A DNA stretch of 8,819 bases from Candidatus Vampirococcus lugosii (GTDB lineage: Bacteria > Patescibacteriota > Gracilibacteria > Absconditabacterales > Absconditicoccaceae), in NCBI RefSeq assembly GCF_018420025.1, contig NZ_JAEDAM010000055.1, forward strand, positions 1 through 8,819. Reading direction: 5' to 3'. The stretch's first letter is position 1, and every line of letters starts with the position of its first letter. The notes under the pieces are model-generated. The model saw only the letters and a list, made by a program, of their open reading frames with translations, was not told where the DNA came from and searched no databases. This document shows positions 1-8,819 of the stretch, piece after piece. The translations under genes and the position numbers were made by a program.

Positions 1-128
1 GGTTAGAAGTAGTTGAATATATATTACATAATTGAAAATTTTTCCGAAATAGAAATCAAAGAAAACAGCTACAGAATCAACAAAATTCACTTTTTTCTTT
101 AATTTAGATGCAGAAAATTAGAAAAATG

Positions 129-156
129 TTGATTTTTTTTGTAAAAACAATACAAT
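129..156 (+). promoter_or_regulatory. Candidate sigma70-type promoter for the small acidic ORF (TTGATT, 16-nt spacer, TACAAT)
   Basis: TTGATT lies at 129-134 and TACAAT at 151-156, with a 16-nt spacer, about 65 nt upstream of ATG 223. Such hexamers arise easily by chance in DNA this AT-rich, so this is tentative. Confidence 0.3.
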
Positions 157-163
157 TAGTTTG

Positions 164-187
164 TCCAAACTTTATTTAAAGTTTGGA
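164..187. promoter_or_regulatory. Perfect 24-bp palindrome TCCAAACTTTA-TT-TAAAGTTTGGA; possible operator or 5'-UTR hairpin
   Basis: The 11-nt arm at 164-174 is the exact reverse complement of 177-187, with a 2-nt centre. It sits just downstream of the candidate -10 and about 25 nt upstream of the SD of the small ORF. The symmetry is seen directly; the function is inferred. Confidence 0.4.
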
Positions 188-222
188 TATATCTGTAAAC
201 ACTGCATCAAAAGGTGAAAGAT

Positions 223-525
223 ATGTCTTCTCAAAACTATGTTTTTAATGATGAGTTGGTTCTAAATGATTCCTGGGATGGCTTTGACTGGGAAGAGACC
301 TGGGATGATACGGTTGAAACTGTAAATGATTCCTGGGATGGCTTTGACTGGGAAGAGACCTGGGATGATACGGTTGAAACTGTAAATGATTCCTGGGATA
401 ATAATGATAGTTTTGACTGGAACGAAACTGTATATGATACAGTTGGAATAGTAACAGAAGTTTGGGATCAAGCATTCTTTTTTTGAATCCAAACTATGTT
501 CTATCTAAAAAAGTTTTTAGAATAA
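223..525 (+). CDS. Hypothetical hyper-acidic, Trp-rich repeat protein (100 aa under table 25)
   Basis: ATG 223 is preceded by AAGGTGA (211-217), the only clear Shine-Dalgarno in the window. An in-frame GTG at 214 is an alternative start. The frame runs through TGA 484-486 (Gly in table 25) to TAA 523-525 and is followed by a hairpin plus T-run. My count is 17 D and 10 E against 2 K, with 9 W. The unit NDSWDGFDWEETWDDTVETV occurs twice exactly, then once as a diverged copy. I recognise no family. Confidence 0.6.
263..453 (+). repeat. 60-bp tandem repeat inside the small ORF (2.3 exact copies plus a degenerate third copy)
   Basis: Positions 263-339 are identical to 323-399 at a 60-nt offset. 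The third copy (385-453) diverges and is 9 nt longer. The period is a multiple of 3 and in frame, giving a 20-aa protein repeat. Confidence 0.95.
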
Positions 526-545
526 AATAATAATTTCACCTATTT

Positions 546-575
546 CCTGTGCTGTATTTCAGTGCAGGTTTTTTT
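546..575 (+). terminator. Rho-independent terminator of the small acidic ORF
   Basis: The stem CCTGTGCTG (546-554) pairs with CAGTGCAGG (560-568) across the loop TATTT. It has 9 pairs, two of which are G-U wobbles on the + strand RNA only. Seven T follow at 569-575. It lies 21 nt after the TAA stop. Confidence 0.7.
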
Positions 576-584
576 AAGAATAAT

Positions 585-971
585 TTAATAAATTAGTTCT
601 CTTTCATCTTTTGATAATTTTTCTATATATATATTTAAATATTCTTTGGATATATATTCTTTTATAAATTTTGGCCATTCTATACATATATATTCATATT
701 CATCAATTTTATCAAAAATTCACATTTCATAAATTTGTTCTATAGATTCTAATCTATACATATCTATATGTAATAATTTTTTGTATTCATTTATATATGT
801 ATATGTTGGACTTTGAATTATATTTTCAGAAATTCAAATTCATTTTGCAAATCATTTAACAAAATTTGTTTTTCCAACTCATAATTCTCAATTTAATAAT
901 ATTTTTTTATATCATTTTTGAGCTATTTTTTCAGCAAATATTTGCATATCTTCACTTGATTTTATTATCAT
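585..971 (-). CDS. tsaE: tRNA threonylcarbamoyladenosine (t6A) biosynthesis ATPase TsaE (YjeE family), 128 aa
   Basis: I checked the table-25 translation triplet by triplet: MIIKSSEDMQIFAEKIAQKGYKKILLNGELGVGKTNFVKGFAKGIGISENIIQSPTYTYINEYKKLLHIDMYRLESIEQIYEMGIFDKIDEYEYICIEWPKF... It carries the Walker A motif GELGVGKT plus the SPTY, DMYRL and IEWP motifs typical of TsaE. There are 7 in-frame TGA, including two Walker A glycines. TAA stops the frame at 585-587, and another TAA sits immediately upstream of the ATG. Confidence 0.85.
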
Positions 972-1357: not shown

Positions 1358-3778
1358 ATGGAAAAAAAAATAAATAAATTTTATGAAACAGATGAAATTT
1401 GGGAAGATATAATACAAATGAATGAAAATATATATGAAACATTAATAGATGATGAAGAATATATAAAAATATTATCAAGTATGAAAAATGATTTTTCTTA
1501 TATTTTATTAGATATTATAAAAAATATATATTCAATTGATGAATTTAATAAATTATCTAATGATGATCTGTTTATATATTTTATAAAAAATACAAAAGAA
1601 AAAAATTTAAAAAATATAGTTGATTTATATAATATTACAAGTTGAGAAGAATTTGAATTAATATATAACAATGAATTGCTTAGGAATTTATTAGAATTTG
1701 CAAAAGAAGAAAATTTGGAATTTATTATAAGAATATTTAATAATGTTGAAGATTTTCAAAAAATATATAAAAATACTTATATGGTAAATGTTTTGAAAAA
1801 CTCAAAAGAAGAAAATTTTAGATATGTAATAAAATTATATGAATTAGAACTATTACAAAATCCTGATAATTTTTATGTTTCTAATAATGTTTTGAATATA
1901 TTAAAATATTCAGATTTACACAAATTAAAATATATTATAGATTTATGTAATAATTCACAAGATTTTGAAAATATTTGTAATAATGAAAATCTTATGGAAG
2001 TTTTAAATTTATGAAAAGAAGAAAATATTGAATTATTAATTAATTTATTTGATAATTTGGAAGAACTTAATTATTATTTAAATAATAGAAAAATAGTTAG
2101 AATATTAATTTTTTGAAAGAAAAATAATATTAAATTAATAATGAATTTATCTAATTCTTTGCAAGAATTTAGCGAAATTTGTAAAAATATAAATATATTG
2201 GATATAATGCAATATACAAAAGAAGAATATTTGGAATATATTATATATTTGTATAATATCAAAAATATAAATGAACTTGAAGATGTATTTGATAATGAAA
2301 TTATATTTGATATATGAGAAATAGCTCAAGCTGAAAATATTAATTTTTTAAATCAATATAGAAATCATAATTTAAGTTATAATATAAATAATTATATCAA
2401 AAAAAGAATTTTGGTTTCTCAAAATAATAGTCAAAAATTTTTTACAAAAAATTTTCCAAAATATAAAAATTTTTCAAAATTATTTGAATATTATATAAAT
2501 AATAAACAAAAATCTTTTTTTGATCTTTTGGAAAAAATAAAATTTGTAGAAGAATATTGATTAAATATTAATATAGATAAATTTGAAATTATTGAAAATT
2601 TTGAAAATTATTGAAATATAGATTTTGAAGAATTAAGAAAAAATTTTGAAAAAATAATTGATCTTAATCAGGAAAAACAAAAAAATAAACTTTTGAGAAA
2701 GTTTGATAATTTTGTTAAATCTAAAAATTTTGATTGATTGAAAAATTTTTTGGCTGAAAATTTAATAAAATATTTTGATAGAATTTATGATAAAAAATTA
2801 AAAATAAGAATAATAAATGAACTTAGAAAAAATTTGTGATGAAATATAAATATTTGAAATATTAAAAAATATAAAATAAATGATTTTGATTTTATTGAAG
2901 CATACAAAATGTCTATTAATCCAGCTTATAATAAAGATCAAATAAATAGTTTATTATATAATTATTTGCTTTGAAAATTTGAAAATATACAAGACTGTAA
3001 ACAGTATGATACAGAAAATAATAATAAATGGTTGGCAGAAAATTTAACAGAAGAACAACAAAAAATATGGTTGTCATCAAATAGGGAAGAGATAAGTCTT
3101 GATCAAGAAATTAATGATAAATCAATAAATAATTTAAATAATTTAATAGAAGAAAATTACAATAATTGTATTAATATAATAAATTTAATAAATGAACTTT
3201 GATTTAATTTCAAAACTAATTTTGATAAATATTGACAATTATTGGAATATTACAATATACATATAAAAAATTGTAATAAAGATATAGAAAAAAGAGATAA
3301 ACAAAATTTGACACAAGATTTGGAAAATCAAATTAATTTGATAAAAAAATTATTTAAAGAAAAAAAATGAAAAAATAGCAAAAAAATAATAATAGAAAAA
3401 GAATTAAATCCTATCAAATGTTTGATGATGTGAAATGTAGTAGATTGAAGTTGTATGTCATTTTATTTTCATGAATCAAATTATTATTCATGTATATCAA
3501 ATACTATAGATGTAAATAAATGAATTTTTTATATAAAAAATGAAAAATGAAATATTTTGTGAAGATGTATAATAACAATATGAAATGATAAAAAAATAAG
3601 TAGATATAAAATGTGATATTCGTCAAATATAAATGAACCTATAGATAAATATTTTGATGATTATACTATAAAATTATCAAAAAAAATGTGATTAAAATTA
3701 AATTGAGATCAAAATAAAGTTGAAAATATAGAATGTGATAAATGGTACAAAGATTGAGTAAAAAAAATTATAGAATAA
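1358..3778 (+). CDS. Large hypothetical protein (806 aa): N-terminal tandem helical repeats, Asn/Lys-rich middle, Gly/Cys-bearing C-terminal domain
   Basis: A single frame runs from ATG 1358 to TAA 3776-3778. I checked it line by line and found no TAA/TAG and 24 in-frame TGA. It joins track ORFs 1358-1645 and 1676-2014, which share this frame, and continues 1.7 kb further. An 806-codon frame free of TAA/TAG is very unlikely by chance in DNA this AT-rich. I recognise no family. Confidence 0.85.
1595..2326 (+). repeat. Seven tandem 34-36-aa protein repeats (diverged at DNA level) within the 806-aa CDS
   Basis: The units are KEKNLKNIVDLYNITSGEEFELIYNNELLRNLLEFA / KEENLEFIIRIFNNVEDFQKIYKNTYMVNVLKNS / KEENFRYVIKLYELELLQNPDNFYVSNNVLNILKYS / DLHKLKYIIDLCNNSQDFENICNNENLMEVLNLG / KEENIELLINLFDNLEELNYYLNNRKIVRILIFG / KKNNIKLIMNLSNSLQEFSEICKNINILDIMQYT / KEEYLEYIIYLYNIKNINELEDVFDNEIIFDIGEIA. 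They total 244 aa, which matches 732 nt. The shared pattern is KEEN-h-x-h-h-x-L, a turn, then a second helix-like segment. Confidence 0.6.
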
Positions 3779-5123: not shown

Positions 5124-5513
5124 TTAAGTTATATTTTTCCAATCAATAATTTCATTATTATTTTTAATTTTCCAATTATATAAATAAATATTAACTTTTT
5201 TATTTTGTAAATAAATTTTTGTCCTTTTATATCTAAAAAGATATACTGATTCTATAAATCAAAGCAATATTATTAAATAATAATATTTAAAAATTGATAA
5301 TTTATAATTATTTATTTCAGCAATTATATAATTTTTTGATTTTGATTTATTTCTAATTAATCACGGACTTATTCATAAATTGTACATTTTGTATCATTCA
5401 AGATTTATTTTTTTGGATAAATAACTTTTTGGTAATAGTTTTGAATATCTCTCTCATTCTCTCAAATTTCAATAATATATAAACCAATAATCTTTTTTTT
5501 TAAATAATTTCAT
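5124..5513 (-). CDS. Hypothetical protein, 129 aa, one hydrophobic segment (possible membrane anchor)
   Basis: The translation, checked triplet by triplet, is MKLFKKKDYWFIYYGNLREGERYSKLLPKSYLSKKINLEGYKMYNLGISPGLIRNKSKSKNYIIAEINNYKLSIFKYYYLIILLGFIESVYLFRYKRTKIYLQNKKVNIYLYNWKIKNNNEIIDWKNIT. It has 6 in-frame TGA, a TAA stop at 5124-5126 and an in-frame stop 6 codons upstream of the ATG. It is absent from the standard-code track. I recognise no family. Support comes from ORF length in AT-rich DNA and host-like codon usage. Confidence 0.6.
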
Positions 5514-6870: not shown

Positions 6871-6997
6871 TAAATATTTTATTAAATTAAATAAATGTCA
6901 AATTTATATATAAATAATTAAAAATTTCAACTTGAAATATTACAAAAAAATATTATTAATGAATAAATTTTTATTAAATTAAAATTTATTTTGAATA

Positions 6998-8578
6998 ATG
7001 AAAAAAATATTATTTATATTTATTGTTATTTTGTTTTGAACAATATGAAAATCTTTTGCAAATTTGGTTGATGTTGTAGAAGAAAAACAAAATAAATTAA
7101 CTTCATCAGTATCTAATAAATATCAAAATTTACAAAATCTATATGAAAATAAAATAAATAAATTAAGTGAAAAAGAATATTATGATATATTAATAGAACT
7201 TGAACAAATAGATTTTTCTGAAATTAAAAAAGAAAATCTTGATAGATATTTTGAAATAGAAGATAAAATAATTAAAGATTTTAATTCTTTCAAAAATAGA
7301 AATAGAAATTTATCTAGAGATTTATCTTTTGATTTAATAGATCAAGATAGATTTGAAACACTTTTAGAATCTTTAAATAATGATATTGATTGAAATATTA
7401 AATATTATGAAGATTTAATAAATCAATATGAAAATAATTATAGTGATAAAATAAATAATTTGAAAAAAAAATATGAAAATATAGTTGACGAAAATCAAGA
7501 TAAAATTGATACTATATTTGATAATATATCAAAAATTGAAAATTTTATTGAAAAATTTAATAATCTCAAAAAAGATATAAATCATATAAATAAAGTTTAT
7601 ATGTGATCTTCATCTACTATTTATGATTTTATAGAAAGTTTTGAACAAGAAACCACTGCTTGACTACAAAAATCATTAAATTCTGAAATTGATAATTATT
7701 ACGATAAATATAAAAATTTTCAAAATTTTTTATGAGAAGATATTGAACAAAAAAAAGATTTATTATTGAAAGAATATAGTAAAGAAATTGATGAATATTT
7801 TCAATGATTGATTGATTGATTTTATTCAAAAAAAGATTATAATGATATTACTTCTTTTTATGAAGAAGTTATAAATAATTATTACAATGATGATGAAATT
7901 TCTTATTCATCAGTTATTGATTTAGATTTATCTTGATTGAATGATTATTCAAATTTAATTGATAAAAATTTGAATAGTATAGATACTAAATTAGACGAGT
8001 TTGATAATGCAAGTGATTATCAAGAGTTAAGAGAAAATTTAATTAATAGATCTGAAGATTTTTATGAATCAAAAAAAACTCAAAAAATAGAAGATATTAA
8101 AAAATATTTGGAAAAAGAACTTGAGTTTTTTATGTTAAAAAGTTCCAAAAATTTATCTATATATAATAATATAAATCAAGATATAGAAGAATTGGAAAAT
8201 TTGAGTACTTGAGAAAAGATAAATAAAATTGATAATATATTAAATTCTATAGAAAATAATCTTGATGAATTTATAGATTTGAATTTAAAAAAAGATTTGA
8301 AAGAACAAAAAAATAATCTATTAGTGAAACAAATAGATTATGAAATAATAAGTAGATGATTACTTAAATATGATATTCAATACTCAAATATATCAGAATT
8401 ATTGGAAAATATACTTAATAATATGTATCAAGAATATTGAGATAAAGAAGATTTTGTGATAAAAATAGAAACTGCTATAAATAATGCTAATGTTTTATTA
8501 CAACAAAATGATTTATGAAAATGAAATAAATATTTGTTGTTTAGAATAAAACAAGCTATGATTAAGTTTTTGAATTAA
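6998..8578 (+). CDS. Secreted/surface hypothetical protein, 526 aa, Sec-type signal peptide followed by a long Asn/Lys/Glu/Asp/Ile-rich predicted coiled coil
   Basis: The frame runs from ATG 6998 to the tandem TAA TAA at 8576-8581, with 14 in-frame TGA. It joins track ORFs 7064-7393 and 7937-8212, which share this frame. The N-terminus MKKILFIFIVILFGTIGKSFA|NLVDV has a KK n-region, a hydrophobic core and an S-F-A cleavage-type c-region. The rest is charged, heptad-like and low in complexity. I recognise no family. Confidence 0.8.
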
Positions 8579-8596: not shown

Positions 8597-8819
8597 ATGT
8601 TTTCTTATAAAAATTATTCCAAAAAATGATTTACATTGATAGAAATGGTTTTAGTTACAATTATTTTGTCTTTGGTGTTTTTAGTAATAATATCTACATA
8701 TTTGGGGATGATAAGTTCTAGAGTACAAATACAAGCTAGACAAACTCTTACTGAAAATACATATTTTATGCTAGAGAGATTAAATGCTGTAGTATCAGAT
8801 TTTACTATAGATTATGAAG
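8597..8819 (+). CDS. Prepilin-type N-terminal cleavage/methylation domain protein (type IV pilin or pseudopilin-like), 3'-truncated by the window edge
   Basis: The translation is MFSYKNYSKKG|FTLIEMVLVTIILSLVFLVIISTYLGMISSRVQIQARQTLTENTYFMLERLNAVVSDFTIDYE. It has the class III signal peptide G/FTLIE with Glu5 and a hydrophobic alpha1-N helix. The cleavage-site Gly is the TGA at 8627-8629. The gene starts 18 nt after the upstream gene's first stop codon and runs off the window. Confidence 0.85.

Follow-up and report, generated by a model that had tools for sequence, protein, structure and literature searches.

We describe a small gene at one end of a contig of the predatory bacterium Candidatus Vampirococcus lugosii (NZ_JAEDAM010000055.1), which we analyzed along its entire length of 8,819 nucleotides (nt), hereafter the window, comparing ten genes within it. 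The gene, at positions 223–525, is probably real and most likely reached this genome through a recent horizontal transfer; its product of 100 amino acids (aa) is, as far as sequence comparison can tell, a strict orphan unique to its lineage. The explanation that we favor, and in which as a whole we place middling confidence, is a genuine orphan gene, recently transferred, that would encode a cytoplasmic helical polyanion. The gene lies in a cassette (129–575) that a model had described, from the letters alone, as a self-contained unit with its own signals (the original prediction). This description proved accurate, though three features had gone unremarked: units of 11 residues, an in-frame TGA codon that may have been the stop codon of a donor, and an insecure number of repeat copies. 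Coordinates of all features are collected in Table 1.

Reading the contig requires genetic code 25, in which TGA encodes Gly: TrxB, ClpP, LemA, TsaE, and two large open reading frames (ORFs) are intact only in this code, which in TrxB, for example, yields GSGPAGHTAG. This is consistent with the published description of the V. lugosii genome. The 100-aa product is already present in the databases as WP_213349549.1, annotated as a hypothetical protein of this organism; a GenBank entry of 103 aa begins instead at the GTG at 214. As predicted, the protein is hyper-acidic and rich in Trp, with 17 Asp and 10 Glu against 2 Lys and no Arg, 9 Trp, and no Cys, and with a net charge of about -25.5 and an isoelectric point of 4.05. 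The predictions that it carries no export signal and that its tail is the only hydrophobic part held as well: we found neither a signal peptide nor a transmembrane (TM) segment (maximum Kyte-Doolittle (KD) average over 19 residues, 0.87), and the C-terminal 25 residues are the sole hydrophobic stretch.

The evidence for recent transfer begins with composition, which had been called foreign and is so by several measures. The GC content of the ORF is 36.3%, compared with the 29.1% expected from its amino-acid composition with the codon usage of its neighbors. After removal of one repeat copy, 15 of its 68 unique codons other than Trp and Met end in G or C, against 3.1 expected (P < 2e-5), and GC content at third codon positions (GC3) is 0.33, against 0.08 in a nearby gene for an 806-aa protein. 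The codons GGC, ACC, ACG, TCC, GAC, and GAG, all used here, are almost absent from 2,600 neighboring codons. The non-coding flanks of the cassette depart in the same direction (24–27% GC versus 0–14% in six other intergenic regions), and they stand out because intergenic DNA elsewhere in the window, at 0%, 6.9%, and 6.4% GC for 1309–1357, 972–1029, and 6904–6997, is extremely AT-rich even for this genome. Positions from about 1 to 584 thus form a small compositional island, with a sharp change in composition at about 584.

The expression signals of the cassette are as unusual as its codons. The strong Shine-Dalgarno (SD) sequence of the original prediction is indeed the only SD-like motif before any gene of the window, with none at the nine other gene starts and none before 30 genes in two related genomes, the S1 and S15 ribosomal protein genes among them. 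Absconditabacteria are SD-scarce and lack the CCUCC anti-SD, with an SD before 2–7% of genes (PMC10783764). Because the lineage is SD-scarce, we read this motif as a mark of foreign origin rather than of good native signaling, which its absence from all 39 other genes examined speaks against. The predicted clean terminator was recovered, with nine stem pairs (546–568) and a run of seven T, as the only intergenic terminator-like site in the entire window; 9 nt beyond its end comes the stop codon of TsaE, a convergent gene. Together, the codon usage, the GC content of the flanks, the lone SD, and the lone terminator lead us to infer a recent import from a donor that uses SD sequences and terminators. 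Such an import agrees with what is reported for V. lugosii, namely 126 genes gained by horizontal transfer and a machinery for DNA uptake (V. lugosii source paper).

The donor would be a moderately AT-rich organism or mobile element that employs SD sites and intrinsic terminators and probably follows the standard genetic code. Two other sources were considered and rejected. A Mollicute donor using code 4 does not agree with the 9 TGG codons of the ORF against its single TGA, and an origin from the prey, Halochromatium, does not fit, as the high GC content of the prey is not that of the island.

Could the island instead be an artefact? The assembly derives from multiple displacement amplification (MDA) and MALBAC products of about 10 consortia, read as 2×125 nt, with contaminants noted (V. 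lugosii source paper). With such material, the left 0.58 kb might be a contaminant or a chimera, or the repeat copy number might have been mis-assembled. The position of the cassette at a contig end and the abrupt change at about 584 would agree with such an error, as would a perfect repeat of 137 nt that exceeds the read length. We nevertheless regard this as very unlikely. The parts of the segment outside the repeat are still AT-rich (23–30% GC), the segment matches no known organism, and a random chimera is improbable because the junction would have to fall within the 9 nt that separate the terminator from the TsaE stop codon, both of which are intact. What does remain insecure is the repeat copy number, since no 125-nt read spans the perfect 137-nt repeat, and with it the length of the protein.

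Evidence that this DNA is a protein gene comes mainly from its repeats. ATG-initiated ORFs of at least 100 codons arose by chance in only 2.5–4.3% of composition-matched simulations, and the ORF is longer than 96–97% of those simulated. Openness alone is nevertheless weak evidence of coding, because five of the six frames are open across the repeat in code 25. Stronger evidence, drawn from comparison of the copies with one another and with other proteins, is that multiples of three are found both for the period of the repeat and for the indel that distinguishes its copies, that some differences between copies are synonymous, and that the frame-1 translation matches a cyanobacterial repeat array described below. 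The third, diverged copy carries an in-frame insertion of 9 nt and differs at 9 codons, 3 of them by synonymous third-position changes from G/C to A/T. At the protein level, the 20-aa repeat is itself a shortened pair of 11-residue units, NDSWDGFDW (9 residues) and EETWDDTVETV (11), and unit lengths along the protein run 9+11, 9+11, and 12+11+11+12. Under the favored explanation, the perfect copies would stem from a very recent, in-frame tandem duplication of 60 nt that occurred after transfer.

A trace of the code of the donor may survive in the in-frame TGA. The Gly codons of the ORF are GGC (twice), GGA, and TGA, whereas 94 of 113 Gly codons in the neighboring genes are TGA. If the donor used the standard code, this TGA would have been a stop codon and the donor product would have had 87 aa, ending in AFFF; read-through in the new host would then have added the 13 residues GIQTMFYLKKFLE. 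Counting against this reading of the TGA, the 11-residue hydrophobic register runs on through Gly88. The codon also lies in an imperfect inverted repeat that re-uses the heptamer TCCAAAC of the palindrome upstream of the gene; within the window this heptamer occurs only at 164, 181, and 488.

Roughly 49% of V. lugosii proteins are without annotation (V. lugosii source paper), and the 100-aa product is one of these. We found no relative of it in a word-indexed search of 5.8 billion clustered proteins, and an exhaustive phmmer search of 1.84 billion representative proteins returned nothing related except three repeat proteins. A profile built from the query and the repeat segments of the cyanobacterial matches retrieved no further members. 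No relative appeared in back-translated scans covering contigs of genomes, metagenomes, and viruses, nor in blastn and tblastn against phage and plasmid records, and neither the palindrome nor the repeat had an exact DNA match elsewhere. Pfam, NCBIfam, PHROGs, and PADLOC held no match, and the single match among Protein Data Bank (PDB) sequences was insignificant (E = 0.69). The synteny comparison that the original prediction had called for gave a similar picture: in the two closest relatives of TsaE (56–57% identical, one of them in a closed 1.13-Mb genome), there is no cassette beside TsaE, and on the cassette side these neighborhoods are not collinear with the window.

Such isolation would also be expected of a non-functional passenger or proto-gene within recently imported or recently expanded repeat DNA, either untranslated or without a selected function. 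That it stands alone among about 15 billion proteins, that its codon usage is unadapted to the host, and that it carries an SD in an SD-scarce lineage all fit this alternative, as do the open frames over the repeat and the chance expectation for ORF length given above. We consider it fairly unlikely on balance, as the cassette is intact from its 5′ hairpin to its terminator in a strongly reduced genome that mutation pushes toward AT, the indel preserves the reading frame, the copies differ synonymously, and the translation has an order-specific match to a real repeat array.

This match, the frame-1 translation against the Trp-Asp (W-D) repeat array of a 1071-aa cyanobacterial toxin (MEL6552833.1), has 46% identity over 50 residues (phmmer E = 7.7e-7 against the 1.84 billion proteins), with a second, partial sequence, MEO0645457.1, also matching. 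Its Smith-Waterman score of 137 compares with 59 ± 11 for composition-preserving and 63 ± 13 for repeat-preserving shuffles, and none of 1000 shuffles, including repeat-preserving ones, reached it. The similarity is weak yet order-specific, and it is the only such resemblance; the original statement that the repeat resembles nothing that could be named is nearly right. Shared between the two are the ordered motif xDSWDxF...TWDxxxETxxDSWD, 11-residue units with Trp at position 4 and Asp next to it, and an acidic, hydroxylated polar face. The toxin differs in carrying about 25 regular, Ser-rich 11-mers, flanked by one N-terminal domain and by a toxin domain at the C-terminus, while the V. lugosii product is a stand-alone protein with 9+11 units, more Glu and Trp, and a hydrophobic C-terminal helix. 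Common descent is unproven, since the joint profile retrieved no further members.

The array of MEL6552833.1 occupies residues 388–760, with about 25 near-perfect 11-residue repeats of the form SD(S/T)WDS(F/V)S(D/E)(S/T)A, after which come SDSWDNVTETV and SDTYDDVIETY. It is covered by no Pfam repeat family and has weak apolipoprotein and phasin profile matches only. The cyanobacterial relatives end in a Scabin-like ADP-ribosyltransferase domain of the enterotoxin-A family; the array itself is uncharacterized. Their matches to the apolipoprotein, apolipophorin-III, phasin, and YtxH profiles are mostly sub-threshold, with Phasin_2 alone exceeding its 24.9-bit cut-off, at 25.1 and 28.4 bits.

The resemblance to this array suggests amphipathic helices with a stripe of Trp and Val and a polyanionic face. 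When residues of the V. lugosii protein are placed on a helix, W23, W27, V31, V34, and W38 fall within an arc of 80 degrees, as do those of W43–W58 and the set W66, V70, V74, V77, W81, and A84; the hydrophobic moment is 0.45. A low-confidence, single-sequence AlphaFold2 (AF2) model places helices at 23–39, 43–59, and 66–99, and in a charge-hydropathy classification residues 76–100 belong to the folded class.

An amphipathic protein built of 11-mers might instead coat a membrane or another hydrophobic surface, with Trp as interfacial anchors and attachment through the C-terminal AFFFGIQTMFYLKKFLE helix. The hydrophobic stripe and the hydrophobic C-terminus are compatible with such a coat, and the only similar sequences are arrays of 11-residue units (hendecads) with sub-threshold matches to the Apolipoprotein, ApoLp-III, Phasin, and YtxH families. 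The query itself matches none of those families, has no TM segment, and is built of 9+11 units rather than regular 11-mers; moreover, anionic bacterial membranes should repel a protein with a charge of -25, save where divalent cations form a bridge. We hold this role to be unlikely.

Several observations weigh against the helical, recently transferred polyanion that we favor. On the side of transfer, the GC excess is partly due to amino-acid composition alone, and the window has no mobile-element gene, with the left flank cut by the contig end and the right flank occupied by a core gene. On the side of expression, the SD may be useless in this host, and promoter-like matches in the window number 13, against 15.5 expected from shuffles; of the claim that the cassette has its own promoter, the TTGATT-16-TACAAT match stood, but it is indistinguishable from shuffles, and the promoter is unproven. 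For structure, amphipathicity reached only z of about 2 in a shuffle test, residues 1–75 belong to the disordered class, and the AF2 model is of low confidence (predicted local distance difference test (pLDDT) 56.6; predicted template modeling score (pTM) 0.24), too poor to judge mimicry of B-form DNA. The product has no sequence or profile similarity to ArdA, Ocr, anti-CRISPR proteins, or any PHROGs or PADLOC model, and to our knowledge a high Trp content and Trp-rich internal repeats are not typical of known DNA-mimic families. Finally, the gene is represented by a single sequence.

The cassette is also rich in potential RNA structure. As predicted, the palindrome is perfect, with 11-nt arms fully complementary to each other; as RNA it folds with -12 kcal/mol (z = -5.6), and it starts about 7 nt past the -10 hexamer of the candidate promoter, where it would be a 5′-terminal mRNA stem-loop or an operator. 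In the minimum-energy fold, the SD region AAAAGGTGAAA (209–219) pairs with TTTCACCTATT just past the stop codon. This predicted pairing could close the mRNA into a loop, could mask the SD, or could be due to chance.

Compared with shuffles, the fold of the transcript has a z-score of -4.7 and that of the ORF alone -3.65. A codon ending in C (TCC, ACC, or GAC) precedes 8 of the 9 Trp codons (270–470), against 0 of 12 in neighboring genes, and the resulting CCTGGG and CTGGGA motifs occur in the window only here (CTGGGA seven times). Because CCUGGG can pair with itself through G-U pairs, it accounts for much of the predicted structure. The cassette might therefore act as a non-coding or dual-function RNA of ~410 nt, comprising the 5′ hairpin, the CUGGGA array, and the terminator, for instance as a protein sponge of the CsrB/RsmZ type; GGA occurs 11 times in its 413 nt, compared with 4.3 times per kb elsewhere, and this density would suit the role, as would the codon bias before Trp and the fold z-scores. 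Yet 8 of the 11 GGA motifs span a Trp codon and the following Asp or Glu codon (TGG-GAT or TGG-GAA) and are so explained by the protein sequence, the repeat has only 2.3 copies, and the evidence for coding stands against it. In the minimum-energy fold, stems contain or border most of the GGA motifs. No Rfam family matches the cassette even at E ≤ 1, and a tRNA search was also empty. The lack of an Rfam match and the explanation of the GGA motifs by Trp-Asp and Trp-Glu codons favor a protein gene, leaving an RNA role highly improbable.

Table 1. Features of the cassette and its immediate surroundings (positions in the window)
Feature	Position	Strand	Details
Possible 3′ end of an upstream ORF running off the contig (frame 3, ...NSLFSLI*)	1–107	+	Six-frame translation; GC 23%
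Promoter-like TTGATT / 16 nt / TACAAT	129–156	+	9/12 matches; candidate only
Perfect palindrome TCCAAACTTTA-TT-TAAAGTTTGGA (11+2+11)	164–187	+	Arms 164–174/177–187, 100% complementary
SD-like AAGGTGA, 5 nt upstream of ATG	211–217	+	Only SD-like motif before any window gene
ORF, 100 codons + TAA, code 25	223–525	+	Translation; product = WP_213349549.1
Perfect tandem repeat, 60 nt × 2.3 copies; 20-aa unit NDSWDGFDWEETWDDTVETV	263–399	+	100% identity; GC 45%
Third, diverged repeat copy (NDSWDNNDSFDWNETVYDTVGIV)	385–453	+	Codon-by-codon alignment
Imperfect inverted repeat AGTTTGGGAT...ATCCAAACT around TGA	459–495	+	-11.4 kcal/mol, z -2.3
In-frame TGA: Gly88 in code 25; would be a stop codon (87-aa product) in a standard-code donor	484–486	+	Translation
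TTTCACCTATT in 3′ untranslated region, complementary to SD region 209–219	534–544	+	Paired in minimum-energy transcript fold
Intrinsic terminator: 9-bp stem, 5-nt loop, T7	546–575	+	Stem-loop 546–568, -13 kcal/mol
TsaE, core gene; convergent neighbor and right-hand edge of the compositional island	585–971	-	PF02367, 6e-33

Beyond the terminator, TsaE and a DUF1294 membrane protein form a divergent pair (585–1308) that is kept in a relative (its positions 1–727; TsaE 56% identical), where the cassette-bearing side of TsaE is not conserved.

The 806-aa protein that follows (1358–3778, + strand) shows by eye, in its N-terminal half, helical repeats of ~35 residues with the pattern (K/E)EENLxxIIxL(Y/F)N; its Cys-containing C-terminal 130 residues have no match at E ≤ 1. 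The original prediction had speculated that Trp-acidic short linear motifs of the 100-aa product dock on this protein, about 0.8 kb away. Direct reading does find TWDD, SWDG/SWDN, DWEE, and VWDQ, all of which fit x-W-[DE] in acidic surroundings, and the 806-aa protein is repeat-rich. W-acidic linear motifs form a class bound by tetratricopeptide-repeat (TPR) receptors of the kinesin-light-chain type. The putative receptor, though, has no TPR and no other Pfam or PADLOC match; two unrelated genes, those for TsaE and the DUF1294 protein, lie between; and strand context and GC3 (0.33 against 0.08) differ. The docking proposal gained no support from these comparisons and is barely credible.

Further along, a basic ORF of 129 aa (5124–5513, - strand) without a Pfam match lies between TrxB and LemA. 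Toward the right end of the window, a 526-aa protein (6998–8578, + strand) has an N-terminal hydrophobic leader and a long coiled-coil-like sequence, and 18 nt after its gene begins another (8597–8819, + strand) that encodes a prepilin N-methylation motif (PF07963) and runs off the contig. These two genes may belong to the apparatus of pili or surface fibers treated in the V. lugosii source paper.

Returning to the favored explanation, the product would be a cytoplasmic 12-kDa polyanion of degenerate 11-residue W-D units. When helical, these units would display Trp, Val, and Phe on one narrow stripe and Asp, Glu, and Thr elsewhere, and contacts along the Trp/Val stripe might hold the helices together, in one chain or across several, perhaps only once a partner is bound. 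The dense carboxylate surface might then titrate a basic nucleic-acid-binding protein, such as a restriction or other defense enzyme, much as the small acidic DNA mimics of mobile elements act. V. lugosii has five restriction systems and two CRISPR loci (V. lugosii source paper), and these could be the targets of such a decoy. We regard a role as polyanionic decoy as a tentative and doubtful proposition.

A more elaborate version is that the protein might be the first member of a new family, Trp-Asp hendecad polyanions that are carried on mobile DNA and neutralize a defense or nucleic-acid-binding protein of a Candidate Phyla Radiation (CPR) bacterium, captured across a genetic-code boundary with the donor TGA stop read as Gly so as to add a hydrophobic tail of 13 residues. 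This we think quite unlikely. If true, the locus would be a clean, very recent example of gene import into an organism with another genetic code and without SD-based initiation, and would show the fate of a foreign stop codon, ribosome-binding site, and codon usage after transfer; Trp-Asp hendecads would be a new sequence type among the small acidic proteins of mobile DNA. At present, the orphan gene is of value as a curiosity and as a test case rather than as a discovery.

Several known systems that share single features with the cassette were considered and rejected. It has no spacers, unlike a CRISPR array. A type III toxin-antitoxin RNA (ToxI-like) would share its repeats and terminator, but the next gene is the convergent TsaE and there is no same-strand toxin ORF. 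An attenuator leader peptide with Trp codons is at odds with an ORF of 100 codons that has no same-strand gene after its terminator, and the spacing does not, on inspection only, fit Ca-binding loops of the EF-hand or thrombospondin type.

Other systems offer closer parallels. Treponema pallidum Arp and size-variable surface proteins of mycoplasmas carry acidic repeats encoded by 60-bp in-frame tandem repeats. The 100-aa product is like them in its acidic unit of 60 nt and 20 aa and in its perfect copies prone to changes in copy number, but Arp-type proteins are exported or anchored at the surface, while it has no signal peptide, no lipobox, and no sequence similarity to them. With apolipoproteins A1/A4/E (PF01442), apolipophorin-III, phasins, and YtxH it shares a hydrophobic periodicity of roughly 11 residues and a narrow apolar stripe. 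It differs from these families in being far more acidic, in using Trp as its main apolar residue, and in having alternate units cut to 9, and it has no profile match to them in Pfam.

The parallel with acidic nucleic-acid mimics that the original prediction raised, for which small proteins of phages and plasmids such as Ocr, ArdA, Arn, Ugi, and anti-CRISPRs of the AcrIIA4 type can stand, held in size, charge, and lack of an export signal, although not in any match in Pfam, PHROGs, PADLOC, or PDB. Like these proteins, the product has about 100 aa, of which 27% are Asp or Glu, and a charge of about -25. Like their genes, the cassette is stand-alone, encodes no export signal, and is foreign in composition, and its host has several restriction systems. 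We take this likeness to indicate a possible mode of action only.

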